Assembly (NCBI GenBank): GCA_964510315.1
Contig: CAZEAP010000011.1
Span: 22,985 to 86,984 of the forward strand
Reading direction: 5' to 3'
DNA length: 64,000 nucleotides
Source: an uncultured candidatus Brocadiaceae bacterium
Lineage (GTDB): Bacteria; Planctomycetota; Brocadiia; SM23-32
The stretch's first letter is position 1; the number at the start of each line of letters is the position of its first letter. Of the stretch, positions 9,013-59,741 are shown piece after piece. A program made the translations under genes and the position numbers. The notes beneath the pieces were generated by a model. It saw nothing but the letters and a program-made list of their open reading frames with translations, searched no databases and was not told where the DNA came from.

Positions 9013-10920
<1,908 letters not shown>

Positions 10921-10966
10921 CTCATCTTTCTCTGCCGGCCCACCCCTCGGGGAGGCATTGTGCCGA

Positions 10967-18997: not shown

Positions 18998-19019
18998 TGC
19001 GGCCTCCAACCGGCGTAGC

Positions 19020-25618: not shown

Positions 25619-26762
25619 CCCACCTCGCCGCCGCCCGGCCCACCCCCCGTCCGATCGACCGGTAGTCCTCCCGACCGATCGGCCCATCCTCGTAAAGGGC
25701 GTGGTAGGAGGTCTCCAGGGAGACCCCCGGAACGCCGTCCAGCGCGTCCCAGACCCAGCTTCCCAGGGTCTGCGCGGTGGACCAACGGGACGGATAATTC
25801 GGCACGCGAGAGAGGCGTTCCGCCGGCAACTCGGGGAACTCAGCGGCAAGGCGCGGCAGGAAGCCCTCAACAATCCGTCGCTGGCGGGAGGGCCGCTCCT
25901 CCCCGGGCAGGAAGTAGTAGAGCCCCCGTTCGCCGCCTCCGGGCGCATGCAGGTCCAGCACCAGGAGCCGCTGCACCCGGTCTGCGAAACGGCGTATGTC
26001 CCGCTGAATCGCCAGAATCTCGGGGCGCAGGGTGAGGCTGCTCCAGGTCCGGTTGAAGTCACGCGGCAGGGCATCCTTGCCGTAATCGCCCTCCGTCACG
26101 CCGTCCAGGTCCACAAAGGGCGCGGCGCGCCAGCGCAGCTCTTGCAGGGGGAGGTCCCCTTCGGGCTCCGCCACGGCGCGCAGAACACCATCCAGCACCC
26201 ACGAACCGGGGGTCTCGCCGGCGTGCTGACGCGCGCACAGGTAAACGCCCCTCTCTCCGTTCTCTGCCCCTGTGCGGGCTTCCACCGCCGGTAGCACCCG
26301 GCCCCCGCCGGTCAGCCCGAGGTGTTCTTCGGTCCAGATTCCCTCCAGTTCCGCCACCGTGCGGCGGAACTCTTCCGGGCCGTAAGGGTAGCAGAAGGCC
26401 GCCGCCGCACGGTCACAGGGCGCCGGGGTCTCGACTGCGAGCATCCATCCACCGGCAGGCGACTCCTCCAACTCCGTCGTGCTGGCGCGCCGCCACTCGC
26501 CCTTATCGAGCCGGACGACCGGTCGGACGTTCCCGAGGCTCTCCTCCGAGCCGAGGCCGAGGCAGGAACCGGCATTCTGCCAGAGGAAACGCACCGTCCG
26601 TCCTCCCGAGCCCTCCGCCTCCAAATGAAACCACAGGGGCTGGGGGCTGGTGCGGGGCTCGGACATGAACCGCACCGTCCAGCGGTCCCCCTCCAGGCTC
26701 ACCTCGGTCACCACGCCGTTGCCGCAGGTCTCCGCGGCGCCCGCCTTCAGTTCCTCTGCCAT
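25602..26762 (-). CDS. M14-family zinc carboxypeptidase-like protein (cytosolic; no signal peptide) with an extra N-terminal domain
   Basis: HAGE zinc-ligand motif in LCARQHAGETPGSW, with later His/Glu residues. ggagg lies upstream of the ATG at 26762. Confidence 0.6.
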   Translation of the reverse strand: MAEELKAGAAETCGNGVVTEVSLEGDRWTVRFMSEPRTSPQPLWFHLEAEGSGGRTVRFLWQNAGSCLGLGSEESLGNVRPVVRLDKGEWRRASTTELEESPAGGWMLAVETPAPCDRAAAAFCYPYGPEEFRRTVAELEGIWTEEHLGLTGGGRVLPAVEARTGAENGERGVYLCARQHAGETPGSWVLDGVLRAVAEPEGDLPLQELRWRAAPFVDLDGVTEGDYGKDALPRDFNRTWSSLTLRPEILAIQRDIRRFADRVQRLLVLDLHAPGGGERGLYYFLPGEERPSRQRRIVEGFLPRLAAEFPELPAERLSRVPNYPSRWSTAQTLGSWVWDALDGVPGVSLETSYHALYEDGPIGREDYRSIGRGVGRAAARWVMSFE

Positions 26763-36464: not shown

Positions 36465-37952
36465 TCAAGCGCTTTTGGAGCGCCGCTGCCCCTCCATATG
36501 CCCCCTGACCAGCCTCTGGAACTCCTCCCCCCGCTGGCGGTAGTTGTTGAACATGTCGTAGCTGGCGCAGCCGGGGGAGAAAAGCACCGTCGTCCCCGGC
36601 ATGGACAGTTCGAGGGCCTGCCGCACGGCCTCCTGCAGGGACTGCGCCTCCCGGATGATCACCGAGCGACCGGAGCAGAGGCTCTCGCGCCGGGTTCGGC
36701 GGGCCAGCAGGGGTCCGGTCTGCCCGAGGGTGATCAGCACTTCAACCGACTCGGCCGCGGCTCGGGCAACCGGGGTCAGATCGAGCTTCTTGTCGTAACC
36801 GCCAGCCACCAGAACCAGCGGAGCCGGGAAGCTCTTCAGCGCGGCCACCGCCGACTCAGGGGTCGTGCTGTAGGAGTCGTCGTAGAAGCGGACTCCCTCT
36901 ACATGCCCCACCGGCTCGAGCCGGTGGGCCAGCCCCTGGAAGGTGCGCAGAACCCTGCGGACGGCCTCGGCCGGTGTCCCCAGGCAGCGCGCGGCGGCAG
37001 CCGCCGCCATGGCGTTCTCCACGTTATGGAATCCAGGCAGCTCTATGTCTGTCCGGGCGCAGAGCACCTCTTCGGTCCGTTCGCCCTTCCAGACGAGGCG
37101 ACCTTCCACCAGGCTGATGCCGGGGCGCAGCCGGGCGGAGTCCGGCGACGAGTCGAAAAACCTTACCTGCCCCGGCAGGCCCTGCTCCGCCCAATCGCCG
37201 AGCACTTCGCTCCGCGCGTTCAGAACCGCGTAGTCCGCTTTCGACTGGAACTGGACGATGTGCCGTTTGGCCGCCGCATAATTGTCAAAGCCACCGTGCC
37301 AGGACAGGTGGTTGGGGGTGAGGCTGGTGACCACGCCGACGTGGGGGGACCACCGGAGGTCGCCGGCGTCACTGAGCTGGAAACTGGACAGCTCCAGCAC
37401 CACCAGGTCCTGCTCCTCCACTCGCGGCAGTGCGCCCAGAAGTGAGACGCCGATGTTGCCCCCGGTCCAGACCCGCCGGCCGGACCGCTCCAGCATCGCG
37501 GCCAGCAGCGCGGTGGTGGTCGACTTCCCGTTGCTGCCGGTCACGCCGGCCACGGGCGCAGTGCAGAGATCCAGAAACAAGTTCATGGGGCTGGTCAGGG
37601 GCACGCCCGCCTCTTCGGCAGCTTTCAGGAACGAGTTGTTTCTGGGGACGGCGGGATTGGCAACGACCAGGTCGGCGCCGGTGAAATCGCTCTTCCGGTG
37701 TTGCTCCAGGCGGTAGCGCACCGGCAGGGTGCTGAGGCGTCTGATTGGATCGGCCAGGCGCTCGGCCGACCGCAGGTCGGTGACGGTAACTTCAGCACCC
37801 CGGCGGCTGAGGAAGCGTGCCGCCCCCTCGCCTCCCCCGAACAGACCGAGGCCCATCAGCGTAACGCGCTTTCCCGGAAGATCAGAAAGAAGGGATCGGA
37901 GCCGCTCTCCGGAGCAGAGGGCGGCCGGGACGCGGCCGGGATTATCGGTCAT
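36465..37952 (-). CDS. murD: UDP-N-acetylmuramoyl-L-alanine--D-glutamate ligase
   Basis: GLGLFGGG N-terminal Rossmann fold, GVTGSNGKSTTT ATP-binding motif, Mur-ligase C-terminal domain. The ATG at 37952 overlaps the stop of the upstream lipoprotein gene (ATGA). Confidence 0.9.
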   Translation of the reverse strand: MTDNPGRVPAALCSGERLRSLLSDLPGKRVTLMGLGLFGGGEGAARFLSRRGAEVTVTDLRSAERLADPIRRLSTLPVRYRLEQHRKSDFTGADLVVANPAVPRNNSFLKAAEEAGVPLTSPMNLFLDLCTAPVAGVTGSNGKSTTTALLAAMLERSGRRVWTGGNIGVSLLGALPRVEEQDLVVLELSSFQLSDAGDLRWSPHVGVVTSLTPNHLSWHGGFDNYAAAKRHIVQFQSKADYAVLNARSEVLGDWAEQGLPGQVRFFDSSPDSARLRPGISLVEGRLVWKGERTEEVLCARTDIELPGFHNVENAMAAAAAARCLGTPAEAVRRVLRTFQGLAHRLEPVGHVEGVRFYDDSYSTTPESAVAALKSFPAPLVLVAGGYDKKLDLTPVARAAAESVEVLITLGQTGPLLARRTRRESLCSGRSVIIREAQSLQEAVRQALELSMPGTTVLFSPGCASYDMFNNYRQRGEEFQRLVRGHMEGQRRSKSA

Positions 37953-38701
37953 CACGACTCCTCGGGGAGCGGTTTGCCAGTTTGTTCGGCCTCTGCGGTC
38001 TTCTGCGCCGGCTGCTCCTCGCACGCCTCTCCAAGGAATGCCGCCAGGCTGCCCGCGGTATCCCGGATTGTATGCTTCATCGCGAACCCGTCCCGCAGGT
38101 TGCGGGGGTTCGGCCCGAAGGGCGTGTTGTACATGCCCCGACGTCGGTCCACAAACTCCAGGACCAGGTCGCCGGTGCTTTCTTCGGTCAGGCGCCCCTC
38201 AACCTGGAAGTCCGTAGCTCCCAATTCCATGAACGGAACCAGGCAGCTCAGGTAGCGCAGCAGGCCGGAGCCCTGGTTGAACCGCGTGACCTTCCCCTCC
38301 AGCCGGAGCACTTTATGCGCATCGCGGGACTGCGGGCCGGTTTCTTCATCCAGAGTGACGAACTGGAACACCCCCAGGGCGCTCAACTCCCGGTGGAGCA
38401 GGACTCTCAAGAAAGTGGTGTAGCCCAGGGCCTCCCTTGAAGGCTCCACCCACCCCTCGCCCACGCTGAAGTCCCCCACCACAACGCCCCGGCAGCGGCG
38501 CACGCTCAACTCCCCCGGCGCGTATACGAGCGAAACGAGGGGCTCGTGTTCGGCCGTCATACGCTCGTAATCCAGGACGTACTCATAGGAGGGGACAGGT
38601 TGTGGAGCGCGGCAGCCAACGTTTGGCACGACGGCCACCGCCACCAGAACGAAAAGGGGGGGGAGGAGGAGTCTGCTACGTCTCCTACGGCGCTGCTGCA
38701 T
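37952..38701 (-). CDS. Hypothetical lipoprotein
   Basis: MQQRRRRRSRLLLPPLFVLVAVAVVPNVGC lipobox; 249 aa; no recognisable enzymatic motif. Confidence 0.6.
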   Translation of the reverse strand: MQQRRRRRSRLLLPPLFVLVAVAVVPNVGCRAPQPVPSYEYVLDYERMTAEHEPLVSLVYAPGELSVRRCRGVVVGDFSVGEGWVEPSREALGYTTFLRVLLHRELSALGVFQFVTLDEETGPQSRDAHKVLRLEGKVTRFNQGSGLLRYLSCLVPFMELGATDFQVEGRLTEESTGDLVLEFVDRRRGMYNTPFGPNPRNLRDGFAMKHTIRDTAGSLAAFLGEACEEQPAQKTAEAEQTGKPLPEES

Positions 38702-38737
38702 CGGCGGACCCGTTCCAATCAGGGGCTAACGGCAAGC

Positions 38738-39601
38738 TCAGTCCGAGACTCGGACCTCGGCAACTTTCACGTCCGCCGGACGCACAACCAGTTCGGCACG
38801 CCGGTTCTTACGGCGCCCTCCCGCGGTGCCGTTGGAAGCCACCGGTCGGGTGGAGCCGCAGCCGGTCGCCGAGAGGCGCTTCGGCTCGAATCCGCCCGAT
38901 TCAATCAGGTAGTTCACCACTGAAAGGGCGCGCGCGCAGGACAAGTGCCAGTTGGACTCGTAGGAGGAATAGCGGATGGGGACGCTGTCGGTGTGACCCC
39001 GAACCTCGATGGCAGCGTCCGGATAGTCCCTGCGAATGGCCCGTGCGGCCTCGCGCAGGGTACTCTTGCCCTGGTCGGTCAGTTCGGCCTGGCCGGAACC
39101 GAACAGCACTCCGGAAAGGATCGTGTAGGTAATGGTGTGCTCCCCTCGGGTAACCTGGACGCCGTCCGGAGCGGTCGGGGTGCCGGCGGAGGTGTCGGCC
39201 TGGAGGGTGGCGCGTTGCTTGCGTACTTTCTCATAGGCTTCCAGCAGCGCCTTCTGCTGTGCCCGTTCTTTCTCCAGAGCCGCCCGCGTCTGGCGAAGTT
39301 CGCCTTCGCGCTCCTTCAGCTCTGCGGAAAGCTCATTGACCGTAGCCGACATTTCCTCCACTTCGTCGCTGCCTTCGCCATCGTAGTAGTGATCGGCGGC
39401 GATGGCCCCGGCCGTTGCCCCCAGGCCAAGACCCACTACGCCCCCGGTCAGGCCACCGGCACCGCCGATATAGTGGCCGATGGCGGCGCCTGTCGTTCCT
39501 CCGACGGCGCCGCCAGCGGCCGATCCTTTCTGCACCGAAGTGCAGCCCGTCATCAACGCCAGCCCGGCGGCTACACATACGATCAATATCCTGTCAGCCA
39601 T
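38738..39601 (-). CDS. OmpA/MotB-like peptidoglycan-binding lipoprotein with an N-terminal glycine-zipper segment and a coiled coil
   Basis: Lipobox LALMTGC; glycine zipper GAAIGHYIGGAGGLTGGVVGLGLGATAGAIA; heptad-like ELKEREGELRQTRAALEKERAQQKALLEAYEK; OmpA_C block SGVLFGSGQAELTDQGKSTLREAARAI...IEVRGHTDS...N..LS.ARA..V..YL...G....RL...G.G...P.A...T..GRR.NRR.ELVV. ggaggg SD. Confidence 0.8.
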   Translation of the reverse strand: MADRILIVCVAAGLALMTGCTSVQKGSAAGGAVGGTTGAAIGHYIGGAGGLTGGVVGLGLGATAGAIAADHYYDGEGSDEVEEMSATVNELSAELKEREGELRQTRAALEKERAQQKALLEAYEKVRKQRATLQADTSAGTPTAPDGVQVTRGEHTITYTILSGVLFGSGQAELTDQGKSTLREAARAIRRDYPDAAIEVRGHTDSVPIRYSSYESNWHLSCARALSVVNYLIESGGFEPKRLSATGCGSTRPVASNGTAGGRRKNRRAELVVRPADVKVAEVRVSD

Positions 39602-39956
39602 CGTCCTCTCCCTCCGTTCCCAGTATCGACCTTTCTGACTATGACTCTACGCAAACGCCGAAGAGCTTTTCAAGAAGTCGCCGGTGCGACGCTGCCTCCC
39701 GCCTCACCAGGCCTCCTCTCCCCTCCGGCAGGGCCGGGACACGGAGAGACCCATATTGTCGTAGGCCGTTCCCGAAAAGTCGCTTAGGACAACTCCACTG
39801 CCCCTGTAAGCAGAACAACGAGAAGCTGTCCGCGCCACGAAGGAGGCCAAAAAAGCTTCGGCCAAAAAACGGGGGGCTATGCGACCGAACCACTGGTCGC
39901 GTAGAGGGGGTGAGACGCGCCGGCGCCGCCGGCTGTCCACGCGCGTGCCGAGGTGG

Positions 39957-40937
39957 TCAGAAGACCTGGCCCATCTGCTCCATGAAGCGGGGAACGGCCG
40001 GACCGAGAATGACCACGAAGATGGCGGGGAATATGAAGAAGATCAGCGGAAACAGGAGCTTCACACTGATCTTCGCGGCGCGCTCCTCCGCGTTCTGACG
40101 CCGCTTGCGTCGAAGGGTTTCGGAGTGGATGCGGAGGGAATCTCCCAGGTTGGTACCGAAGCGGGCCGACTGGTTGATCCTCGCCGTCAGGCTTTCGACC
40201 TCCTCGCAGCCGGTCCGCAACGCCAGGTGGCGGAGACACTCGTCCCTGGGTTTGCCCGCACCTACTTCCAGGTTCAGCAGGGCAAGCTCCTCGCACAGTT
40301 CGGGGGCGACGTCCCCGAGTTCCTTGCTTACACGGACCATGGCCGCATCGAGGCCGAGACCCGCCTCGACGCAGACGATCAGCAGGTCGAGGGCGTCGGG
40401 CAGGCTGAGCCGAATATTCCGTATGCGCGCTTCAGCCTTTCGGCGCAGCCAGATGTTGGGCACCATCAGGCCGAACACTATTGCCAGGGCGGCGTAGATA
40501 ACGATGTTCTGCAGGCTGGGCCCGGCGGCCCCGGTCGCCTTCGCCCGCCACAGCAGAAAGGCCACCACCGAGGAGGGAAACGCCAGCGCGAGGGCAACCT
40601 TCGCGCCGAGGAACACTTCCACCGCGCCCTTACGACGTATGCCTGCGTGGACCAGCGTCTCCTGGAGCTGGCTGTGCACGGTGTCCCCCAGGCGCCAGGC
40701 GTGGGAGAGGTGCCGGACCAACCGCAGGGGCAGGGGCAGTTTTGAACGCTTGGAGCGGCCTTGCTGTTTGTTCTTTGTCTTCGCGGCGGCCGATTGTTCG
40801 CTTTTCCCGGCCCCTGTTCCCAGCCGGTCGGAGGCCTTGGAGCCGCCCTTCTTCTCCATCACGATCGCAAGCACCACAAAGACGCCCAACACGGCGCAGA
40901 ATATGCCGCCCAGAAGTATGATGTTGGCAATGTTCAT
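39957..40937 (-). CDS. tadC: Tad pilus assembly inner-membrane protein TadC (T2SS F-domain)
   Basis: T2SSF-like helical domain with flanking TM helices. The ATG at 40937 lies 2 nt after the tadB stop. Confidence 0.8.
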   Translation of the reverse strand: MNIANIILLGGIFCAVLGVFVVLAIVMEKKGGSKASDRLGTGAGKSEQSAAAKTKNKQQGRSKRSKLPLPLRLVRHLSHAWRLGDTVHSQLQETLVHAGIRRKGAVEVFLGAKVALALAFPSSVVAFLLWRAKATGAAGPSLQNIVIYAALAIVFGLMVPNIWLRRKAEARIRNIRLSLPDALDLLIVCVEAGLGLDAAMVRVSKELGDVAPELCEELALLNLEVGAGKPRDECLRHLALRTGCEEVESLTARINQSARFGTNLGDSLRIHSETLRRKRRQNAEERAAKISVKLLFPLIFFIFPAIFVVILGPAVPRFMEQMGQVF

Positions 40938-40939
40938 GA

Positions 40940-41965
40940 TCAGACCTTGATGTTCACGATTTTGTAGATAAGGAAAACGCCCACGAGCTGCCATCCGACG
41001 GCGAACATGATCATCTTCTGCCCGATCGAGGTGGTAAAGAGCGGGCGCATGTGGTCGGGGCTGACCAGATAGATCAGCCCGCAGAGCACGAACGGCAGCA
41101 GCCCGACGATCAGGCCGCTCAGCTTGCCCTGAGCCGTCAGCGTCTTGACCTGTCCCATGATGCGGAAGCGTTCCCGGACGGTGTTCTGCAGGCTGTCCAG
41201 CACTTCGGAGAGGTTACCTCCGGTCTCCTTCTGGATCACCAGGGCACTGGCGAAGAAACGCACATCGGGGGTGTTGACGCGCGTGATCAGGTTCCGCAGT
41301 GCGACCTCGAAGTCCACCCCGAAGGACAGCTCGTCGGAGAGCAATTGAAACTCATCACCTATGGGGTCCGGCATCTCGTCGGCTACGTTCCGCACTGCGG
41401 CGTTCAGGGACTGGCCGCTCTTGACGCTGCTGGACATCAGGTCCAGTGCATCGGGAAGCTGTTCGGAGAACTTCTTGAGCCGGCCCCGGACCCGCAGCCA
41501 GACGTAAAGCGACGGCGCTCCACCCAGCACGCCGGCGAACAGGACGGCCAGCAGGGGATCGAGGCCGCGACGCCACAGAATGCTCACCGCCAGGCCCATG
41601 GCGGCCAACAGGGCCGAGACGATCACAAAGTTGCTCACCGATATGGGCAGTTGCGCCTGCACCAGCATGCCGCCGAGCTTGTCGGCCCAGGTGGTCTTCT
41701 TCAGCGCCTTGTCCAGGGCGGGAATGTCGCTGAGGGCCTTACGGCGGAGGGCTTTTTTGCGCCTTTCCCTCTTCTGGACCTCCTTTTCCCTGGTTTCGGC
41801 CAGCGCGTCCCCCAGTTCGTAATGCTTGACCTGGCGGACGCCTTTCATCCTGTCGAGGACTCGGTCTTGAGACTTCGTTCGCTGGCTGGCCAGCAACCAC
41901 ACCCCGAAGAAGGCAAACATGACCGAGAAGAATATCAGCGCCACCACTACGATGTCGGTTCCCAT
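40940..41965 (-). CDS. tadB: Tad pilus assembly inner-membrane protein TadB (T2SS F-domain)
   Basis: MGTDIVVVALIFFSVMFAFFGVWLL...; T2SSF domain; paralogous to the downstream tadC. Confidence 0.8.
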   Translation of the reverse strand: MGTDIVVVALIFFSVMFAFFGVWLLASQRTKSQDRVLDRMKGVRQVKHYELGDALAETREKEVQKRERRKKALRRKALSDIPALDKALKKTTWADKLGGMLVQAQLPISVSNFVIVSALLAAMGLAVSILWRRGLDPLLAVLFAGVLGGAPSLYVWLRVRGRLKKFSEQLPDALDLMSSSVKSGQSLNAAVRNVADEMPDPIGDEFQLLSDELSFGVDFEVALRNLITRVNTPDVRFFASALVIQKETGGNLSEVLDSLQNTVRERFRIMGQVKTLTAQGKLSGLIVGLLPFVLCGLIYLVSPDHMRPLFTTSIGQKMIMFAVGWQLVGVFLIYKIVNIKV

Positions 41966-41984
41966 GGCCGCCTCCTGCCGTCGG

Positions 41985-43409
41985 TCACGGCATAAATATG
42001 TCGGGGGACAGGTTGACTCCGGCGCCGCGGAGCTTCTCTAAGAAGCGGGGCTGCACGCCGGTGGGCACCAGCTCTCCCAGCAGGTTCCCTTCGGAGTCCA
42101 CCCCCTTCCTCTCGTAGCGGAAGATGTCCTGCATGGTGACGACCTCCCCTTCCATGCCGGTCACTTCGCTGAAATAGATCAGCTTCCGGCTGCCATCGCT
42201 GAGTCTCTGCAACTGCACAACCACGTCGAGGGCGCTGGCGATCTGGTGGCGCACCGCCGACTGGGGCAATTCCACCCCGCCCATAGCCACCATGGTCTCC
42301 AGGCGGCTCAGGGCGTCCCGAGGTGTGTTGGCGTGGACCGTGCACATGGAGCCGTCGTGGCCGGTATTCATCGCCTGGAGCATGTCCAGCGCCTCCCGTC
42401 CACGCACCTCACCCAGGATGATACGGTCGGGCCGCATACGCAAACTGTTGATCAGAAGATCGTACTGAGTGACCTCCCCGCGCCCCTCGATGTTCGGCGG
42501 CCGGGTCTCCAGCCGTACCACGTGGGGCTGCTGGAGCTGCAGCTCGGCGCTGTCCTCGATGGTGACGATCCGTTCCTCGGGGGTGATGTAGCCGCTGAAG
42601 ATGTTCAGGGCGGTGGTCTTGCCGGCGCCCGTTCCGCCGCTGATCAACATGTTCAGCCGGCAATTCACGCAGGCCTGGCAGATCTCCGCTATCTGCGGGG
42701 TCAGGGTCTCGTACTCCAGAAGGTCGTCCATCGACAGGGCGTCCACCCGGAACTTACGTATCGAGAGGACCGGGTAGTCGACCGCCAACGGAGGGATGAT
42801 GGCGTTCACACGGGAGCCGTCCGGCAGACGGGCGTCGCACATGGGGGAACTCTCGTCGATGTGGCGGCCCACCGTGGAGACGATCCGGTCCATCACGTGC
42901 CGGAGGTGGTCGTCGTCTTTGAACTCAACGTCGGTCAGATACAGCTTGCCGTAGCGCTCCACGTAGACCTGCTTGGCCCCGTTGACCAGTATGTCACTTA
43001 TGCTGCTGTCTTTAAGGAGGGGCTCCAGGGGGCCGAAGCCGGTGACTTCGTCGACGATCTCCTGGACGAACTGCTTCCGCTCCCGTCGGTTGAAGCTCAC
43101 CCCGGCCTGGTCCAGCAGTTTCCTGACGACCTGCCGGATCTGCTGCTTTATCTCGCTCTCTTCCAGCTCGCCCAGGATGCTCAGGTCCAGGGCGTCCAGC
43201 AGCTTGCGATGAACCTTGCGTTTCAGTTCCTGGTACTGCTCCCGTCCGAGGGAGGTCTTCTGCTTCTGGACGGTATACTTCCGTCCGCCCGCCGCCCGCT
43301 TTGCCGACGGTTTCTTTTGTTCCTCAGTGGGCTGAGCGGCTTCGGATGCTTTCTCGGTCTTCTTCTCGGTCTTGCGGAGCTTTTTTATCCGGTCTTTCAG
43401 CGTGCTCAT
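41985..43409 (-). CDS. cpaF: CpaF/TadA secretion ATPase (VirB11-like)
   Basis: Walker [15 protein letters not shown], the typical T2SS-E Asp/His boxes, and a Lys/Glu-rich N-terminus. Confidence 0.9.
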
Positions 43410-43448
43410 TGACTCAATCCCTTCCCCGAGGGTGGTATAGTCGCCCGG

Positions 43449-44627
43449 TTATCTGGCCCAACTGAAGAGCCCGCGCTTTTTCTTGGGCTTCGCGCGCGGC
43501 TGGAGCCCCGCCGTGTGCTGGGCCAGGGCCATTAAGCTGTGGGCGACCGCGCTGTGAGGGTCTGCCTCCTCCAGCACCTGTCCCGAATTCAACGAAGTGA
43601 TCACCGGCTCAGAGTTGTAGGGCACCAGCCAATGAACCGGCAGGTCGACGTGCTCCACGATCTCGTCCAGCGACACCTGGTCGCTGTCGTAGAAACGGTT
43701 GACGATGAATTTGATCTGTTCCCGCTTGTAGTCCAGTTCATGGAAGGTCTCCAGCGCACGAATGGTGTTCCTTATGGAAGGAAGAACCATGTCGCAAACC
43801 AGGAATATCTCGTCGGCCTCGTCCAACCCAACGATCGAGCAGTCGTCGATCATGTGGGGCATGTCCAGCACGACATAACTGTAGGTCTGTCGGCAGACCT
43901 GCAGGACTCCCCGAAGCTTCCAGGGATCGATGGCCTCCACGTCGGCCACCGACAGCGGGGCGGGCAGCACCTCGGCGCCGCTGGGATGTGTGGTCATGAA
44001 ATTGATCAACAGATTCTCGTCAAGCCGCTCCTGCTCCTGAATGGCGTCCAGCAAGGTGTGCGCGAACTCCCGTATGTCCAGCGCGAGGGCCACCGAGCCG
44101 AACTGCAGGTTCAGGTCGATAATGCAGGCGGAGTGGTTGCCGTTCAGCTCCGCGGCAATCTGGGTTGCCAGGTTGCAGGCAATGGTCGTCACTCCGGTGC
44201 CGCCGGTGGCGCTGAAGACGGCCACGACTTTACCCCCTTCCCCCTGGGTGATGCCCTTGCGCCGGAGGAGGCCGCCCATCGCCTTGGCCAGCTCGTCCCG
44301 GTTGACCGGGAACTCCAGGAACTCGTCGCTGCCGGCGCGCATGCAGGAAAGCAGCAGCTCCTGGGAGGGTTCTTTGCTGACGACGATTATCCCCACGTCC
44401 CGTGGTCCGTTGCTGACGGACTGGATGGTCTTGAGAGCCGGGTCATTCGGAGTATCCACACCGACTACGACGATGGCGGGTTCTTCCTCCTGGACGCGCG
44501 TGGGCGCCTCGCGCAGGTCCGCAATGGCCTGTATGTGAAGCTCCGGGTCGTACTCGTGGAAGGTCTCCCTGATCTCTTCACAGTACTGCTCATTGGGATG
44601 GACGACGAATATGGTCACTTCCGGCAT
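43449..44627 (-). CDS. cpaE: CpaE/TadZ: receiver-like N-domain plus MinD/ParA-type ATPase
   Basis: A deviant receiver domain (no obvious phospho-acceptor context), then VVAVFSATGGTGVTTIACNLA, a deviant Walker A of ParA/MinD type. Confidence 0.85.
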   Translation of the reverse strand: MPEVTIFVVHPNEQYCEEIRETFHEYDPELHIQAIADLREAPTRVQEEEPAIVVVGVDTPNDPALKTIQSVSNGPRDVGIIVVSKEPSQELLLSCMRAGSDEFLEFPVNRDELAKAMGGLLRRKGITQGEGGKVVAVFSATGGTGVTTIACNLATQIAAELNGNHSACIIDLNLQFGSVALALDIREFAHTLLDAIQEQERLDENLLINFMTTHPSGAEVLPAPLSVADVEAIDPWKLRGVLQVCRQTYSYVVLDMPHMIDDCSIVGLDEADEIFLVCDMVLPSIRNTIRALETFHELDYKREQIKFIVNRFYDSDQVSLDEIVEHVDLPVHWLVPYNSEPVITSLNSGQVLEEADPHSAVAHSLMALAQHTAGLQPRAKPKKKRGLFSWAR

Positions 44628-44635
44628 TTCGGTTC

Positions 44636-46033
44636 CTAACCCCGCTCAGAATCGATTGATTTCTCTTTTTCACTTTCGCGCACCAACCGCTCCAGCTCGG
44701 TGTTCTCCGGGTGCCGGGGGAACTCCTCCTCGATCTGTTGCAGTTTTTCACGTGCGCGCTCTATGTTTCCTTGCTTCAAAAACGATTCCAATACCTGGCG
44801 GTCGACACGATATTTGTCGCGCGCGCTCTTCAGTTCGCCGCTCAACCCCCGGTAGGCGGCCGCCGGCTCGGGCATACCTTCAGGGGCTTCGAAGTCCTCT
44901 GAGTAACCGGCCAGCTCTTCCAGCTTGCTTTCGGCTTCCGGCAGATTGCCGGTCTCCAACGCCTTCTCAATCTGATCCAGCAGGGCCTGGTAGCTGGCCC
45001 TCCGCCGGAACCGCTCCAGGGCCGCCTGGGCGCGCTCCCGCAGCTCGGGGGCACGTTCGGCCGCACTGGTGCCCGCGCATTCCTGCACCAACCGGTCCAG
45101 CAGACTCAGCGTCCTGGCAAAGTCCTGTTCCTCCTCCAGGGCTCTTTCGGCGCGTTCATAGAGCTGCTCGCCCAGCTTCCTCCGGTAACGGCGCATTTCC
45201 TCGCGGGCTTGCCGTGTGGCTTCCGTCAGATCGGGATACTGCTCCAGGACATTCTCCAGTGCGTCGACGGCGTCTTCATAGCGCCCGCCGTCGGCCTGGT
45301 CGCGGGCCCGCTCCAGCGCCGCTTCGGCTTTCTGCAGCCGTTCCTCTTCTCCATGCTGTTCCACCAGCACGGGGCCCTGTTCGCAGGCACCCTCCGCTTC
45401 CCGCAGCAGGAGCGGATGGGCGGCTTTGGCCGCCAGGAACTCCTGGCGGTGCTCCATTCTGATCAGCAGCAGGACGTTGGCGTTCGAACTGTTTTTCTTC
45501 TTCCGGGACGGACGGCCCAGATGGTCCAGGCTGCCCACCGCGTAGAGCTTGACGCAGCGCATGAAATCGATCGGCTGGCGGTTGACGATCTTGTAGACGT
45601 CCACCGTCATTCCGGCCCGCAACAGGCCGCTTTTGATATCGGCCGGCTCCACTCTGACGCGTTCCAGGTACATGCCCTCCGGCACGAAGTTGTCCTCTTT
45701 CACCAGCCGCGGGCGCAGGATTGGTTCGTGCTTAAACAGGTGCATTCGCGCCCGCCATTCGCCCTGGTCGATGTCCTCCGGCCTGGTGAAGGCGCCCTGC
45801 GGGATTGTATCCTCGGGCCAGGGCACGAACACCGCGTTCGGTTCGGCTCCCTCCTCCTGTTCCGCCCTGATGAGTTCTCCGTAGCTGATATCGCGCCTCG
45901 CCAACAGGATCTTCGTGCGAGGCACTGCCGGCCCGCCTTCCGCAGTGGACAGATGCTTGTAGGCGCCAAAGGCGGCCAGCGCAGCACAGACCAGGCCGGC
46001 AGCCAGATACAACACAGCGCGTTTGCTTCCCAC
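44636..46033 (-). CDS. cpaB: CpaB/RcpC-like Flp pilus assembly protein fused to a ~250-aa C-terminal helical (TPR/coiled-coil-like, TadD-like?) extension
   Basis: N-terminal TM anchor; the SAF/RcpC region (ILLARRDISYGELI...MTVDVY...VLLL) is followed by a long Glu/Arg/Ala-rich helical region (ALERARDQADGGRYEDAVDALENVLEQYPDLTEA...). GTG start. Confidence 0.7.
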   Translation of the reverse strand: MGSKRAVLYLAAGLVCAALAAFGAYKHLSTAEGGPAVPRTKILLARRDISYGELIRAEQEEGAEPNAVFVPWPEDTIPQGAFTRPEDIDQGEWRARMHLFKHEPILRPRLVKEDNFVPEGMYLERVRVEPADIKSGLLRAGMTVDVYKIVNRQPIDFMRCVKLYAVGSLDHLGRPSRKKKNSSNANVLLLIRMEHRQEFLAAKAAHPLLLREAEGACEQGPVLVEQHGEEERLQKAEAALERARDQADGGRYEDAVDALENVLEQYPDLTEATRQAREEMRRYRRKLGEQLYERAERALEEEQDFARTLSLLDRLVQECAGTSAAERAPELRERAQAALERFRRRASYQALLDQIEKALETGNLPEAESKLEELAGYSEDFEAPEGMPEPAAAYRGLSGELKSARDKYRVDRQVLESFLKQGNIERAREKLQQIEEEFPRHPENTELERLVRESEKEKSIDSERG

Positions 46034-46160
46034 CGGAACCCCCCCCGTCGCTTCCTAAAACCGATTGGCTACACAATTCTCCGTGATTCCGTTCCGACTG
46101 CGGACGGCCGGACGCGGAGTTCCTCGAGACGGACCCTGAGTGCCGGGATGGCGTTTCAGG

Positions 46161-46619
46161 TCACTCGTGCCGGAAGACACAGCGCCCGTGCAAAGGAACG
46201 GTGCCTGAGAAGTTCGGCAGCAAGGAGCCCACGATGACCTGGAAGTCGTATGTGACGGTCACAACGACCAGGTCGCCCTCGACCGCCGCCGACAGGCCCC
46301 CTGCGCGCTGATTGCCGGACTCATCCAGGACGGTCACCTCTGTGCTCCACTCTCCGGGCAGACCCACGCGCTGCAGGAAGTCATCGACGGCCTGCTCCAC
46401 GTCGGTCTCGGTCCGGTTCGGCAGGGAGCCCTCACGGGCTCCTTCACGAGCGGCGTTTGTCAGCAGATGAGCGTCGAAATACGCCCGGCCGAACTCCAGG
46501 GCCCCGAACACCAGCAGAACGAAAACCGGCAGGATCAACGCAAACTCGACCGCTGCCTGTCCCCTGCGGGATCGGTCCTTTTTCGCTGTGAATTGGACTC
46601 TCATCGGCTTTACCTGCAT
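46161..46619 (-). CDS. tadE: TadE-like pseudopilin
   Basis: RRGQAAVEFALILPVFVLLVFGALEFGRAY is the TadE/TadG N-terminal signature. Confidence 0.8.
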   Translation of the reverse strand: MQVKPMRVQFTAKKDRSRRGQAAVEFALILPVFVLLVFGALEFGRAYFDAHLLTNAAREGAREGSLPNRTETDVEQAVDDFLQRVGLPGEWSTEVTVLDESGNQRAGGLSAAVEGDLVVVTVTYDFQVIVGSLLPNFSGTVPLHGRCVFRHE

Positions 46620-47065
46620 TTATCCTGACCTGCCCTGAAAACCTGAGTGCCTCCCAGGACGCGGCGTCCACTCGGTCCCACAAACATCACGTCTGCTCAA
46701 TAAGCGACACACTGTATCAATAGAACAAGCTGCAAAAAGAATGCCGGCCTCGCGGAAGTGTGTCGCATCCACGAACCTCCGGCAAAACCGGCCTTTACCA
46801 CGCCGCGTCGCCGTCGGCAGGAGACGACGGCGTCTCATCTCTGCAGAGGCTCTCTCCCGCCGGCCTCCACTTTTCAGCGTCCATAGTAGCAGAACACTGC
46901 GGGCGTTTGCAACGCCTCTGTCAGCCGGGGCGACCGGACGCATTCTGGCCCCCGGAAACCGGTCGCAGGCGCTCCGCGCCGCCCCGCGTGGAGCGGGTGC
47001 GATGGAAAGCTCACCGCTTTTCTGCTGTAATGTTCTGTCGGCTCGGAGAAAGGACGGAGGCAGAC

Positions 47066-47845
47066 GTGACAGGGGATTTCATCCGGTTTCTCGGCACCGC
47101 GGGCGCCCGGTTCGCGATGGCCCGACAGCTCCGTTCCTCGGCCGGAACGCACCTTTCCCTCCGGGGTCGCAACATTCTGCTCGACCCGGGGCCGGGCACA
47201 CTTCTGCGCTGTGCTCGGACCGACCCGCCGCTGGACCCCCGGCGGCTGGACGCCGTCATCCTGAGCCACGGTCACATTGATCATTCCGGGGACGTCAACG
47301 CCGTGCTGGACGCCGTGACGGCCGGGGGGCGCCAGCCCGGAGGCCGGCTTTTCGCACCTGCGGAGTGCCTGGAAGGCTCCCGGTCGGTGGTCTTCAGCTA
47401 CCTGCTGGAAGGACTGGAGGAAGTCGTCCGGCTCGAAGCGCGGACCGAGTACCGCCTCGACCCCCTCCGCATCCTCACTTCACCGGCACATAGTCACGCC
47501 GCGGAGACCTATGGCCTGCTGTTCAAGGCGGAGGGCATGCCCACCGTGGGTTTCGTGGCGGACACCGGATACTTCGAGGGTCTGGGGGAGGCCTACGCGC
47601 CCGCGGACATCCTGGTGGTCAACGTCGTACTGGCTGAGCCCTTTCCCGACAGGGAAATCATGCATCTCTCCCTCCCGGAGGCGGCCGGGGTCATCTCGCG
47701 GGCCCGCCCCCGAAAGGCCGTCCTCACCCATTTTGGCGTCAGCATGCTGCGCGCCGGCCCCGAGGAAAAGGCTGCGGCTATGGCCGAAGAGCTGGGCGTG
47801 GAGGTGGTGGCCGCACGTGACGACATGGTGGTGCCGCTGGAATAA
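47066..47845 (+). CDS. MBL-fold metallo-hydrolase
   Basis: FLGTAGARF...ILLDPGPG...ILSHGHIDHSGD (HxHxDH). The GTG at 47066 has ggagg 5 nt upstream. An in-frame ATG also exists at 47029. Confidence 0.75.
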   Translation: MTGDFIRFLGTAGARFAMARQLRSSAGTHLSLRGRNILLDPGPGTLLRCARTDPPLDPRRLDAVILSHGHIDHSGDVNAVLDAVTAGGRQPGGRLFAPAECLEGSRSVVFSYLLEGLEEVVRLEARTEYRLDPLRILTSPAHSHAAETYGLLFKAEGMPTVGFVADTGYFEGLGEAYAPADILVVNVVLAEPFPDREIMHLSLPEAAGVISRARPRKAVLTHFGVSMLRAGPEEKAAAMAEELGVEVVAARDDMVVPLE

Positions 47846-47893: not shown

Positions 47894-48535
47894 TCAGTAG
47901 GGTGCGGGCATTTTCTCGCAGACGTCCTCGACCACTTTCTGCACCTGCCTGGCCATCTGCGGCGCAAGAGCGTTGCCGGCAACTCCGCCCAGCACACCTC
48001 CGGCGACCCCTCCGACGACCTTTCCGGTACCGTCCCCTCCCACGGCCGCCCCGGCGGCCGCACCGACAACGGCGCCCCCCACGGTGCTCAAAGTCCTGCC
48101 GGTGCTGCCGTAGCCCGTGCCCATCCAGGCGATACCGGCCGTCTCGGTGTCGACCATCTTGGCGGTCATGCTGATGCGGTTGCCCTCGACGCTCACGTTG
48201 CCCATGATGACGGCGGGCACGTTCAGTATCTCGCCCGCCCGTGCAGCAGCGGTGTTCGTGGTGAGGTCCGAGGCCTGGAACTCCTGCTCCTCCAGAACGG
48301 CCTGCACCTGCTCTCGCTCGACCACGACGTATCCCTTCTTCATCGCCTCCATGGCGAAGAAATCAGCCACCTGGTTCTTGGCCACCTCCCCCGCGACGTC
48401 ACCGGTGATTTCCACCACCGCAACCTTGTCGACAGTGGAGAAATCGTATCCCGTCTGCGTGTAGCTCTCGCCGCTGGCGCAGCCGGCCACAAAAAGCACC
48501 CCAAACGCCAGCAAACCGGTCAACCCTCTTCTCAT
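47894..48535 (-). CDS. Lipoprotein with a CsgG/LpoB-like N-domain and a C-terminal glycine-zipper segment
   Basis: MRRGLTGLLAFGVLFVAGC lipobox; KVAVVEITGD...YVVVEREQVQAVLEEQEFQASDL...AGEILNVPAVIMGNV...MVDTETAGIAW matches the CsgG/LpoB/TolB-N-type fold pattern; then GGAVVGAAAGAAVGGDGTGKVVGGVAGGVLGGVAG. Confidence 0.65.
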   Translation of the reverse strand: MRRGLTGLLAFGVLFVAGCASGESYTQTGYDFSTVDKVAVVEITGDVAGEVAKNQVADFFAMEAMKKGYVVVEREQVQAVLEEQEFQASDLTTNTAAARAGEILNVPAVIMGNVSVEGNRISMTAKMVDTETAGIAWMGTGYGSTGRTLSTVGGAVVGAAAGAAVGGDGTGKVVGGVAGGVLGGVAGNALAPQMARQVQKVVEDVCEKMPAPY

Positions 48536-48865
48536 TTCGTTCGCCCTTCCCGATAGAACCCGCCAACCATCTACTCCTCGATTGTACGTCCGCGCCGGGT
48601 CGGCTGTCAACCCGGGGGCGGCCGAATCATCCCCGGTCCTGACGACCCCTCTGGAGCACCTGCAAAGGTGCCCGTCGACGCCCGGGAAGACGGCCCGCAC
48701 TGCGACCCGGAAGGCCTGTGCGCCTGCGGCGCATCCGGCCGCCTGTGGCGGGCTCGCGCCCCAACCGCCGCTTGGCTCTCGCCCACATAGGGCATAGAAT
48801 CAACGGAAAGCGTACGGAGAGCGTCTCCCAGTGCGGCCCTCATCGCAGCAGGAGGAGCCCGAGAA

Positions 48866-52713: not shown

Positions 52714-53190
52714 CTATCCCGAGTCCTGCGGGCCGCCGGGCTTCAGTCCCAGGACGAGGGCGACTTCGTCGCAGTCGGGGAATTTGGGGCAGTTCAGGCA
52801 GTCGGTCCAGATCTTGTGAGGCAGGTTCTCCTTCGGATAGAGGGAGAAGCCGAACTTCAGGAAGAACTCCGGAAGGTAGGTCAGCACGAAGACCCGGTCC
52901 ATCCCGAGTTCTCGGGCTTCCTCCAGGCACCTTTCCACCAGCGCCGTCCCGATGCCCCCGCCCTGCCGGTCCTCCCGCACCGCGAGGCTGCGGATCTCCC
53001 CGAGGCCCTTCCAACTCACGTGCAGGGCTGCACAGCCCACCAGCCGGTCCTCCTCCCGGCAGACGAAGAAGTCGCGCAGGTTCTCGTAGATGTCGTTCAG
53101 GGAGCGGGGCAGCAACTGTTGCTGCTCCGCGTAGCGGTTCACCAAAGCGAGTATATCCGGTGGGTCGCCTATGCGCGCCTTCTCAATCAT
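52714..53190 (-). CDS. GNAT-family N-acetyltransferase (N-acetylglutamate synthase-like short form)
   Basis: Acetyl-CoA-binding motif REDRQGGGIGTALVERCLEEA. Start overlaps the upstream gene's stop (ATGATTGA). Confidence 0.8.
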   Translation of the reverse strand: MIEKARIGDPPDILALVNRYAEQQQLLPRSLNDIYENLRDFFVCREEDRLVGCAALHVSWKGLGEIRSLAVREDRQGGGIGTALVERCLEEARELGMDRVFVLTYLPEFFLKFGFSLYPKENLPHKIWTDCLNCPKFPDCDEVALVLGLKPGGPQDSG

Positions 53191-55126
53191 GGGAGTTCCG
53201 TCCGAACTTGAGGTCGGTGAGTAGAACCAGGCCCCGAAGCGCCGAATCCATCGTGGGCAGCCGTATCAGGTTCCGCCCCGGCCCCTGCCTGAACCCTCCG
53301 AGGGCCCGCTCGGGACGCTGCAGGTGGTAGCTGTTCTCCGGCAGAAACTGCAGCCGCATCAGATAGGCCGCGGCTCGCTCGGCCGCCCGCAGGTCCGCTT
53401 CCTTTCCCGCCAGCGCCGCGGCACCCGCAAAGACGACCAGGTCGTCGGCCGTATCGGCGGCCTCGGGAGGCCATTCCGAGAGGGTTCCACCGACCAGGTC
53501 TCGGGACGGAGCCTCCTCCGCGCCGAGCTGTTTTCCCCGTCGCTGCTCCGCAATGCGCGCCGCAAGCTCCGCGTAGCGCGGCTCCGGCAGGAAAGCGCTC
53601 AGTTCCAGCAGTGCGCTGACAACCCATCGTGCCTGCCGCGGGGAATACGACGGGAACTCTACATCCGGCGCGGCGCCGCCCTGCGGCGGCAGCGCCGCCT
53701 CGAAAGCATCCTTCGCGGCCGGCAGAAAGCGGGCCGTCCCCAGCTCCCGGTAGGCAAGGGCCAGCGCCACCGACCCCTTCGCCTGGACCACCGTCCGGTC
53801 GAAGCCTTCCGGCGGGGTGGTGCGCCCGCCGGTCTTCGGGTCGTATTTCAGCTCGAACTCGCCGCCTTCGCCCTGCATGAACAGCAGGAAATCGGCCAAC
53901 GACGCTATCCACGGATCGGTCTCCGCGTGGCCCGTCCCCCTGCGGAAGCGGCAGATGCCGGCCAGAAGCTGGGCGGACTCCTCGGTCTCCCAGGCCGCGT
54001 GACAGGTCTCCTCGCTGCTGACGAAGGACCTCCCCGGCGCGGCGGGGTCGGGCTGCGTGAAGCCGATCGCGTGCGCCAGGGCGCGATGGCAGCCCTGCAC
54101 GTAGGCCGGCTCCGGGGCCAGTTCGCACAGCCGCGCCAGCGCCGCCGCCGCCTCGGCCTGCAGCACCAGGCTCTCGCACCCGCCCTGGAGGCCGGTTTCC
54201 GGCGCGAAGTACATCGTGAACGAGCCGTCTCTGCTCTGGGTCGCGAGCAGGTATTCGGCCGCAAGTCGGCAGGAGCGGAGCAGCCCGGCGACATCCGCCC
54301 CGCCCCCGGGCGTCAGGCCGCGGGTGGCGGGCAATACGCGCCGGCTGCCCGAAGAGTCGTTGACGAAGCTCTCCGCCTTCAAAAGCCACATCCGCGCGGC
54401 CGGGTGACGCCAGGCCTCGGCCCGAAGCCCGGCACGGCGGCAGACCGCCCGCAGCATGTCCCGGTGATTCGACGCCTCCCAGCCCACCACGTCGGCCGGC
54501 AGGAAATAGCCCTCCTTCGCGCCTTTCCAAAGGGCCAGCCCCACCGGGGCACCGAACTTCCTTTCGGCAAAGTCCCGCCGCTTGCCGACGGGGAACCGAC
54601 GCCCCTCCGTGAGGATATCCATCCGCACCCGCAGGTCGCCGGCCGAGGTCCCCGGCCCCATGCGGCCGCTGAGACGCCGCGCTGCGGTCCGGACGCTCCG
54701 CGCAAGGTTCTGCTCCCGGCACTGCTCCCGCAGCGGCGGGCCCCCGCGCGGATAGATGGTCACGAAGACGGGGGCATCGGGCGTATCCTCACAGCAACTC
54801 GGTTCGGGGGGCTCCGCCTCGCTTCGGTGCGCGGCCAGTGAATCGAGGAACAAGGCCATAAGGCCGGCTTGCTCCTCCCGCGTCAGCTCGAAGTTCAGCC
54901 ACGCGCCTTCGGGCGGCAGGAGCTGCGGCCCGGGCGTCTTGCCGGCCGCATCGGTCGGCTCCGGGCCGGCCGGAGCAACCGCGTAGATGCGTCCCCATCC
55001 GACCAGCGCGACCATCGCACAGGTGGCCAGCAGCAGAAGGAAGGCGACGGCCAGCTCGGTTCTGAGTCTATGCCGGTCCTCCGGTTCCATCGGCAGCCGC
55101 TGCCCTTCAATAGAGAGTCTACGCAT
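53183..55126 (-). CDS. Membrane-anchored protein with a divergent AMMECR1-like N-domain and a C-terminal alpha/alpha-toroid-like repeat domain
   Basis: TM anchor LAVAFLLLLATCAMVALVGW. The region APVFVTIYPRGGPPLREQC...SVRTAARRL...DLRVRMDILTEG...FGAPVGLALWKGAKEGYFLPADV...MLRAVCRRAGLRAEAWRHP follows the AMMECR1 block order; the LRGCIG Cys is replaced by REQC. Start ambiguous between 55126 and 55090. Confidence 0.55.
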   Translation of the reverse strand: MRRLSIEGQRLPMEPEDRHRLRTELAVAFLLLLATCAMVALVGWGRIYAVAPAGPEPTDAAGKTPGPQLLPPEGAWLNFELTREEQAGLMALFLDSLAAHRSEAEPPEPSCCEDTPDAPVFVTIYPRGGPPLREQCREQNLARSVRTAARRLSGRMGPGTSAGDLRVRMDILTEGRRFPVGKRRDFAERKFGAPVGLALWKGAKEGYFLPADVVGWEASNHRDMLRAVCRRAGLRAEAWRHPAARMWLLKAESFVNDSSGSRRVLPATRGLTPGGGADVAGLLRSCRLAAEYLLATQSRDGSFTMYFAPETGLQGGCESLVLQAEAAAALARLCELAPEPAYVQGCHRALAHAIGFTQPDPAAPGRSFVSSEETCHAAWETEESAQLLAGICRFRRGTGHAETDPWIASLADFLLFMQGEGGEFELKYDPKTGGRTTPPEGFDRTVVQAKGSVALALAYRELGTARFLPAAKDAFEAALPPQGGAAPDVEFPSYSPRQARWVVSALLELSAFLPEPRYAELAARIAEQRRGKQLGAEEAPSRDLVGGTLSEWPPEAADTADDLVVFAGAAALAGKEADLRAAERAAAYLMRLQFLPENSYHLQRPERALGGFRQGPGRNLIRLPTMDSALRGLVLLTDLKFGRNSHD

Positions 55127-55160
55127 TCGGTCGGCGTCCGCGACCGTCGGCGGCGGGCGC

Positions 55161-56096
55161 TCAGAGACGCTCTTTATACCACCGAACGGTGCGCCGCAGG
55201 CCTTCCTCAAAGCCGACTGCGGGGTCGTAACCGATCCGGCGCCGGGCCTTCTGTATGTCGGCGAGGGAGTGCCGCACGTCGCCCGAGCGTTCCGGGCCGT
55301 ACTCCGGCTCCACGGAGGTCTCCAGGATGCCGCCGAGAAACTCCAGCAGTTCGTTGAGGGTATGCCGCTCGCCGCAGCCGATGTTCACCACGGCCCCCGC
55401 AGCGCCCTCGGCCCGGGCCGCCTGCAGATTCGCGTCCACCACGTTGTCCACGAAGGTGAAGTCGCGCGACTGCTCCCCGTCGCCGAACACGGTTGGTCTT
55501 TTCCCTTCCAGCAGGCAGCGGACGAAGATGGGGACGACGGCGGCGTACTGGCCGGCGGGGTCCTGCCGGGGGCCGAAGACGTTGAAGTAGCGGAGGGCGA
55601 CCGTTTCCAGGCCGTACACCTCCGTGAAGGCCCCGCAGTAATGCTCGGCGGCCAGCTTGCTGACGGCGTAGGGACTTTTCGGCGCCGGCTTCATCCCCTC
55701 GTGTTTGGGAAGTTCGGGGGCGTCACCGTAGACGGAGCTGCTGGACGCGTAGACCACGCGCCCGACCCCGCAGTCCCGGGCGGCGTTGAGCAGCCGCAGC
55801 GTGCCTTCCACGTTGGCGCGGTTGGTGGCCACCGGGTTGTCCACCGACCTCTGCACGCTGGCCAGGGCGGCCTGGTGGAACACATAGCGGGCTCCCTCCA
55901 GCACCTCACGCAGCAGCGGGGCATCACAGATGCTTCCCTTCACGAACTCCACGTCCCCTTCCACCTCCGCCAGGTTTTCCTGCCTGCCGGTGGAAAGATC
56001 GTCCAGCACGCGGACCTCTTCGCCCTGCGAGGCCAGCCGGACGGCAATGTTGGACCCTATGAAGCCTGCGCCTCCGGTCACCACGTAAAGTGCCAA
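55161..56096 (-). CDS. NAD-dependent epimerase/dehydratase (GalE/WbpP-like extended SDR)
   Basis: VTGGAGFIGSN Rossmann motif, catalytic YAVSK, nucleotide-sugar epimerase layout. TTG start with ggagg upstream. Confidence 0.85.
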   Translation of the reverse strand: MALYVVTGGAGFIGSNIAVRLASQGEEVRVLDDLSTGRQENLAEVEGDVEFVKGSICDAPLLREVLEGARYVFHQAALASVQRSVDNPVATNRANVEGTLRLLNAARDCGVGRVVYASSSSVYGDAPELPKHEGMKPAPKSPYAVSKLAAEHYCGAFTEVYGLETVALRYFNVFGPRQDPAGQYAAVVPIFVRCLLEGKRPTVFGDGEQSRDFTFVDNVVDANLQAARAEGAAGAVVNIGCGERHTLNELLEFLGGILETSVEPEYGPERSGDVRHSLADIQKARRRIGYDPAVGFEEGLRRTVRWYKERL

Positions 56097-59117: not shown

Positions 59118-59612
59118 TCAGGCATTGTGAGGGTCCTGTGCCCTCTCAAAGACAACCCGCGCGAGTGCGTAGTACAGGGTATAAACAGCCAGGATGGCCA
59201 GAGGCAACCACCATTGCTTCAGTATGCCGAGAGCGAAAAGCGCCAGCGATTCTGACGCAATGATCAGGACATCGCTGAGGACTACTCCTGCACACTCGTC
59301 CGCCGGGATGAGCCGAAACCCCAGACGAAGTGAGTTGAGGAGAGCGTAAAGGAAGGCAGCAAAAAGCGGGACTTGAATCACGAGCCCCGATGCAGGATGC
59401 CAAGCGCTAAGTGCCAGAAGCGCGACGGCCACCAGCGCCCATCCTGCCGCCTCAGGACACCACCGAATTACCATGCGACTCACTTGACCACAGTGGGGGC
59501 AACGCACGTCAGCGGGCAGTAGGAAGCGTGTATTAGCACGGGAGGCAAGACCGGGCGCCCCGGGGAAATCATGGTGACAGTTAGGACACTTCCAGGTCGG
59601 TAGAAATCTCAT
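59118..59612 (-). CDS. Zinc-ribbon membrane protein (N-terminal CxxC...CxxC plus 3-4 TM helices); candidate Rhs-CT immunity protein
   Basis: MRFLPTWKCPNCHHDF...VRCPHCGQV, then hydrophobic helices. Lower local GC. 130 nt downstream of the Rhs fragment. Confidence 0.55.
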   Translation of the reverse strand: MRFLPTWKCPNCHHDFPGAPGLASRANTRFLLPADVRCPHCGQVSRMVIRWCPEAAGWALVAVALLALSAWHPASGLVIQVPLFAAFLYALLNSLRLGFRLIPADECAGVVLSDVLIIASESLALFALGILKQWWLPLAILAVYTLYYALARVVFERAQDPHNA

Positions 59613-59741
59613 CGCTGTCTCACCCAGCCGGAGTCCAATTCCTCCACATGTACGGTCACTCGACAGGCTCGTCGTGCAAGACCGTATGACACGCCACAAT
59701 ACAGGCGACTTCGCAGCAAATCCCGGGCTCGGGCGCGCAGA

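Follow-up and report, generated by a model that had tools for sequence, protein, structure and literature searches.

The window analysed here, a 64-kb stretch of contig CAZEAP010000011.1 from an uncultured candidatus Brocadiaceae bacterium, carries on its minus strand six genes of a Tad (type IVc) system, one of which encodes a CpaB/RcpC-family protein ending in a helical domain that resembles tetratricopeptide repeats (TPR). Window genes were called by GC3, and about 55 open reading frames (ORFs) were scanned against Pfam. The six genes are given below in their minus-strand order, with family matches in brackets and lengths in amino acids (aa).

46161..46619, minus strand: tadE, encoding a TadE-like minor (pseudo)pilin (PF07811, 4.8e-19)
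44636..46033, minus strand: CpaB/RcpC-family alignment protein with a helical TPR-like domain, 465 aa
43449..44627, minus strand: CpaE/TadZ, with a receiver-like N-terminal domain and a MinD/ParA-type ATPase domain (AAA_31, 2.5e-9; Response_reg, 2.7e-7)
41985..43409, minus strand: CpaF/TadA secretion ATPase (T2SSE, 5.2e-66; TIGR03819, 1.2e-104)
40940..41965, minus strand: TadB platform protein (T2SSF, 6e-20)
39957..40994, minus strand: TadC platform protein (T2SSF, 4.6e-18)

The family assignments of all six genes agree, which bears out the Tad-type locus proposed here by a first-pass annotation made from the sequence alone, and the features that mark membership of the Tad family are present: a CpaF-type ATPase, paired TadB and TadC, a TadZ/CpaE protein and a TadE-type minor pilin. 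The class-III signal of TadE reads RRG/QAAVEFALILP and is followed by a hydrophobic helix. CpaF, with an intact Walker A motif, is 60–64% identical to proteins named CpaF from other phyla, and CpaE/TadZ also matches MinD-family NCBIfam models. The P-loop of CpaE/TadZ, SATGGTGVTT (44190–44219, aa ~137–146), has neither Walker-A lysine; this lysine-free loop is common to all relatives of the window's clade, and the version in L013 (related loci are cited here by such numbers) has one lysine (GAKGGTGVTT). The window protein may bind ATP without hydrolyzing it. For TadC, the likely start is the ATG at 40937, 2 nucleotides (nt) past the TadB stop; TadC homologues in related loci are 313–337 aa long. 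By homology, CpaF would power the machine, TadB and TadC would form its platform, CpaE/TadZ would position it, TadE would serve as a minor pilin priming the fibre, and the CpaB/RcpC homologue would form a periplasmic ring around the passing fibre.

The same core set, with the genes from cpaB to tadC in their usual order, is found in the tad genes of A. actinomycetemcomitans, the rcp-tad genes of P. aeruginosa and the cpa genes of Caulobacter. Unlike those systems, however, the window locus lacks flp, tadV/cpaA, rcpA/cpaC, rcpB, tadD and tadF/G; its operon starts with tadE, tadG being distant in close relatives; and the C-terminal end of its RcpC homologue is a TPR-like domain of 240 aa instead of a β-hairpin.

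By sequence, the assignment of this homologue to CpaB is weak: TIGR03177 matches it at 4e-14 with 52.5 bits (cutoff 71) over aa 8–154, corresponding to model positions 2–148 of 262, and neither Pfam RcpC nor SAF matches it at E ≤ 0.01. The assignment is secured by the predicted structure. A first AlphaFold model, built from five sequences, was poor in the N-terminal half; a model built from 41 family members has a predicted local distance difference test (pLDDT) score of 93.9 and comprises three parts.

aa 3–33: transmembrane (TM) helix in the AlphaFold model
45398..45919, minus strand, aa 39–212: predicted periplasmic β region equivalent to D1 (SAF) and D2 of RcpC
44642..45349, minus strand, aa 229–464: C-terminal helical-repeat (TPR-like) domain of nine helices, all-helical in the model

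When the model was compared with the PDB using Foldseek, P. aeruginosa RcpC (9gzr) came top (E 3.7e-7; 14–15% identity in the structural alignment), BamD structures came next, and PilW stood at rank 19 (E 1.2e-2). The N-terminal TM helix, D1 (SAF) and D2 of RcpC and Caulobacter CpaB are all found in the window protein as well. P. aeruginosa RcpC assembles into a dodecameric ring, to which the secretin RcpA is bound (PMC12307814), and the hairpin of Caulobacter CpaB touches CpaI beneath the secretin (PMC13170226). Where those proteins have the C-terminal hairpin contacting RcpA or CpaI, the window protein has the helical-repeat domain: as the model shows, D1 and D2 are retained, and the secretin-binding β-hairpin of RcpC is replaced by a TPR-like arm of ~240 aa.

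The arm is rich in Glu and Arg, and three of its helices are 31–39 residues long, whereas canonical TPR helices are much shorter. It shares a TPR-like fold with the pilotins TadD/PilW/PilF, with BamD/YfiO and with YbgF/CpoB only in a generic sense; in contrast to these free TPR lipoproteins, it has no lipobox and is tethered to the inner membrane via the CpaB part. A profile of the CpaB-TPR family matches BamD/YfiO at 2e-7, plus other TPR proteins, and fold and profile comparisons gave no TadD-specific match for the C-terminal domain. At first annotation it was suggested that the extension might substitute for TadD; the modelled domain resembles generic periplasmic TPR proteins, with BamD the closest.

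A word-indexed search with the CpaB-TPR protein found five relatives only, and an exhaustive search of 1.84 billion representatives gave 192 matches. Full-length clusters number about 40, with proteins of 430–480 aa that match end to end at identities down to ~23%, and about ten more matches are fragments; ordinary CpaB proteins (330–400 aa) align to aa ~5–155/210 only. The fusion is thus a conserved family architecture that is rare across the database as a whole, and the CpaB-helical/TPR protein first recognised from the letters alone is upheld both by the high-scoring model and by this conservation within a lineage. Named carriers are metagenome-assembled genomes (MAGs) to which NCBI gives the names Candidatus Brocadiia, Candidatus Brocadiaceae or Planctomycetota bacterium, together with Planctomycetes bacterium SM23_32. 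No description of a Planctomycetota Tad system or of a CpaB-TPR protein was found in the literature.

Related loci were collected as seven MAG loci by a genome scan with a 12-sequence alignment, plus others by exact look-up. Their shared order is tadE, cpaB-TPR, cpaE, cpaF, tadB, tadC, a gap, an OmpA lipoprotein gene, a lipoprotein gene and murD; the order of the tad core is the same in eleven distinct loci, and the tad genes are intact in all eight relatives whose contigs span them whole. Relative to the window proteins, CpaE, CpaF, TadB and TadC of the relatives are 61–78% identical, TadE 54–70% and the CpaB-TPR protein 37–47%. The CpaB homologue of the sister lineage L012 (GCA_046538485.1, JBKHIT010000007.1, 4954–7212) has 752 aa and differs further from RcpC/CpaB in an inserted WD40 propeller, which sits between the RcpC-like part and the helical domain (aa 501–735 align with window aa 218–442, E 4e-11). 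Two other features of L012 were recorded. A stretch of 1.6 kb with no called gene (8406–10001) opens with a CpaF-like N-terminus (MSSLKDRIAELR...), so that CpaF there is either longer than called or interrupted. At 20434–21000, 7 kb from the tad core, lies a gene for a 188-aa prepilin of the type IVa/type II secretion system style (N_methyl, GFTLIELLVVIAIIAIL), which means that the L012 genome should also encode a PilD-type prepilin peptidase.

Turning to the missing components, no Pfam match to Secretin (PF00263), Peptidase_A24 or Flp was found among the ORFs scanned in the window, and a six-frame scan of the 64 kb for class-III signals (a small residue, four residues, Glu with [YF] next, then a hydrophobic stretch) matched TadE alone. 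ORFs were listed on both strands of the short gaps (39602–39956, 46034–46160 and 46620–47030), and none is Flp-like, nor was a Flp-like ORF found in the window-clade loci L001–L010 and L015–L018. The Pfam tables of the related loci fetched likewise contain no secretin or A24 peptidase gene up to 10 kb from the tad core, and these loci span lineages down to 61% CpaF identity. The first reading of the locus as having no pilin, peptidase or secretin in or beside it, and no small Flp-like ORF in its gaps, accordingly holds for the window and for up to 10 kb around the related loci. A 41-aa gene upstream of tadE in L003 was considered as a pilin and ruled out, being Arg/Gly-rich and conserved in L004 only.

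Pilin-side genes do occur in sister lineages. In L013/L014, where CpaF is 65% identical to that of the window, a 328-aa TadG-like gene (PF13400) precedes tadE, and upstream of tadG lies a 55-aa ORF that begins MDKNRRNKG/QSLVEYVLILAVVV... and has the size, the motif (MDKNRRNKG/QSLVEYVLILAVVVTVVMIAAL...) and the position of a Flp pilin; its Pfam matches are sub-threshold (Class_IIIsignal, 6.5e-5; Flp_Fap, 5.3e-4). A metagenome scan with this L013 Flp returned the protein itself and one 59%-identical fragment. In L019 (CpaF 70%), two tandem tadG genes stand upstream of tadE, beyond which the contig ends. When the L013 Flp and TadG were compared by tblastn with the window and all loci, no trace of them was found in the window's clade, the TadE N-terminus alone matching the Flp.

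In close relatives of the window, tadG has moved. On contig JBMCUS010000001.1, which carries tad locus L017, the tad core lies at 68–89 kb and a tadG homologue at 195–216 kb, a distance of about 120 kb. This tadG site, between argF (OTCase) and ilvD, holds one copy in GCA_048622555.1 (L015, 10001–11002) and three tandem copies in GCA_964434535.1 (L018, 8944–12159). No Flp-like ORF was found beside the relocated tadG genes. Because tadG sits at this distant site, the tad system is dispersed in the window's clade. The ancestral operon head was probably flp-tadG-tadE, the order seen in the sister lineages, and tadG moved to argF–ilvD in the window's clade. The absence of a pilin, taken at first as a property of the machine, does not survive these comparisons, since in a sister lineage this operon starts with a Flp-like gene and tadG, and close relatives have tadG at a distance. 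The simpler view that this is a standard system split over the genome is largely supported by the relocated tadG, whereas a separate flp-tadV-cpaC cluster was not found.

Downstream of tadC, the window contains the following features.

39849..39900, minus strand: probable operon end, a GC-rich hairpin with two T-runs (39869–39864 and 39854–39849)
39602–39956: gap of 355 nt between tadC and the OmpA-lipoprotein gene
39644..39673, minus strand: sigma-70-like promoter of the OmpA-lipoprotein gene (TTGAAA, 18 nt, TAGAGT)
38738..39601, minus strand: OmpA lipoprotein that has a lipobox and, besides its OmpA-like peptidoglycan-binding domain (PF00691, 7.7e-21), a glycine zipper and a coiled coil
37952–38701, minus strand: DUF4410-like lipoprotein, followed by MurD

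The first-pass annotation listed these three genes correctly, the six tad-type genes are all present where it had placed them, and the gap has the length it had reported. The NCBIfam matches of the OmpA lipoprotein are YiaD- and MotB-type. The coupling of the lipoprotein gene to murD, described at first annotation as ATGA, needs correction: the stop and start overlap by 1 nt in TGATG (37950–37954), so that MurD starts at 37952, and from this start it has the length of its homologues. As a separate observation, murD lies apart from other cell-wall (dcw) genes here, and its placement is the same in all relatives.

The T-run 3′ of tadC is invariant in six of six aligned loci, and in most of them a GC-rich hairpin (−9 to −23 kcal/mol) stands ahead of it; in the window, the hairpin lies 11 nt ahead of the T-run, and a simple terminator scan did not flag the site. 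The promoter of the OmpA gene is the sole promoter-like site in 38600–47200, and both of its hexamers are kept in five of the six loci aligned. Apart from this promoter and the T-run, no structure in the gap is conserved. The promoter marks the OmpA gene as a separate transcription unit outside the tad operon. Like it, the genes for the DUF4410-like lipoprotein and MurD are neighbours transcribed apart from the tad genes; a functional link is possible.

Whether the OmpA lipoprotein, alone or together with the DUF4410-like lipoprotein, is part of the machine and anchors the TPR-like arm to peptidoglycan or the outer membrane, as had been suggested, has to be judged against this arrangement. Its lipobox, glycine zipper, coiled coil and peptidoglycan-binding domain would suit such a role, the OmpA gene is adjacent to the tad block in all relatives, and the TadC-OmpA-lipoprotein-MurD adjacency is kept in L012, L013 and L019 despite changed outer flanks. 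However, the same adjacency takes in murD and rpsU, which have no pilus role, and YiaD-type lipoproteins are common on their own. In L017, moreover, the segment that runs from the gene for a 241-aa glycine-zipper lipoprotein up to and including tadC has been inverted without leaving its site (5776–13422) relative to the flanking UvrD-like and OmpA genes, which leaves the OmpA gene upstream of the tad block on the opposite strand. Together with the conserved promoter and the conserved T-run after tadC, this inversion makes a role as machine component unlikely.

On the other side of the operon, a gene at 47894–48700 (minus strand) encodes a CsgG/LpoB-like lipoprotein with a C-terminal glycine zipper, whose true start is probably M56 (about 48535). 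An unrelated glycine-zipper lipoprotein of 241–253 aa takes its place in L001, L003 and L017. As two unrelated proteins hold this position among relatives, the lipoprotein upstream of tadE was rejected as a conserved component. In all, three proteins with a glycine zipper or a lipobox are encoded beside the tad operon.

Elsewhere in the window, a 158-aa ORF at 52714–53190 (minus strand) is probably the GNAT acetyltransferase gene found in relatives between the genes for a 625-aa hypothetical protein and a UvrD/PDDEXK helicase, which would mean that the 1205-aa helicase ORF as called overruns its true start. ORFs of 735, 386, 675, 193, 255 and 378 aa in 16802–19009, 25602–26762, 53183–55210 and 59118–61809 lack a Pfam match at 1e-4. 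Over its last ~6 kb, the window has a GC fraction of 0.60–0.62, compared with ~0.66. Rfam and tRNA scans of the window found nothing.

Taken together, we consider it probable that the six genes form the inner-membrane and periplasmic core operon of a Planctomycetota Tad (type IVc) system with a TPR-armed ring protein, and that flp, the peptidase and any secretin are encoded elsewhere. Flp, prepilin peptidase and any secretin would then lie at other genome sites, and the TPR-like arm would serve as an adaptor joining the ring to an outer partner; candidates for this partner are a secretin from a gene outside the locus, peptidoglycan and a lipoprotein of the outer membrane. Several points weigh against this interpretation. 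For the window's clade, neither Flp nor an A24 peptidase nor a secretin was found, be it in the window, beside the relocated tadG or in the related loci; the Flp call in L013 falls under the Pfam gathering scores; and the secretin-contacting part of RcpC is absent, which also fits a secretin-less machine. Furthermore, Denise et al. (PMC6668835) report a single locus for nearly all Tad systems, allowing for tadV as a lone gene, so that a dispersed organisation is unusual, though not unknown. The Kil Tad genes of Myxococcus lie in several clusters, and it took a search of the whole genome to find KilP, the major pilin (PMC12075869). Like the system described here, Kil of Myxococcus xanthus occupies several loci, and it encodes its major pilin and additional sets of minor pilins away from the core. 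The two differ in that Kil clusters encode a secretin (KilC) and a peptidase (KilA), none of which was found at the window locus, and in that Kil has a predatory role and a T3SS* partner, neither of which is indicated for the window system.

The absence of a nearby secretin could also be taken at face value, as a secretin-independent Tad variant in which the RcpC ring uses its TPR-like arm to dock on peptidoglycan or on lipoproteins of the outer membrane, and in which a fibre or a short TadE/TadG pseudopilus stays inside an enlarged periplasm or exits by another conduit. Such a machine would agree with the lack of a secretin within 10 kb of the tad core in the related loci fetched, with the replacement of the secretin-binding hairpin, with the resemblance of the C-terminal domain to BamD, YbgF and CpoB, which bind envelope partners, and with genes for a peptidoglycan-binding OmpA protein and a lipoprotein that stay adjacent despite differing flanks. 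Yet absence from the locus does not equal absence from the genome, dispersal is a fact in this clade with tadG encoded elsewhere, and the arm could equally bind a secretin; we hold this alternative to be unlikely. A diderm planctomycete Tad system without a dedicated secretin, whose arm, augmented by WD40 in the sister lineage, docks on peptidoglycan or outer-membrane lipoproteins, seems to us quite improbable. Finally, a decaying remnant, left functionless after the loss of flp and tadG from an operon head that the sister lineages keep, is very improbable: all six genes are intact in the eight distinct relatives that span the operon, which argues against decay, their products (CpaE, CpaF, TadB, TadC and TadE) keep the identities given above, tadG is kept elsewhere and even amplified, and the Walker A motif of CpaF is intact.

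This is a second documented dispersed Tad system, after Myxococcus Kil, and a caution for detection tools that rely on a single locus. Only in 2025–2026 was RcpC/CpaB shown to be a periplasmic ring that joins the Tad motor to the secretin via its C-terminal hairpin. A conserved clade with a TPR-like arm in place of that hairpin, and in one branch a WD40 propeller as well, shows that the outer interface of the ring is evolvable. At present the system is a modest lineage-specific variant; it would gain much greater importance if the genomes truly have no secretin. A secretin-less Tad would be a new way across the unusually wide planctomycete periplasm, either crossing the outer membrane or stopping short of it. 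The clade offers a natural test of how Tad machines are coupled to the envelope in Planctomycetota, a phylum whose envelope is atypical.

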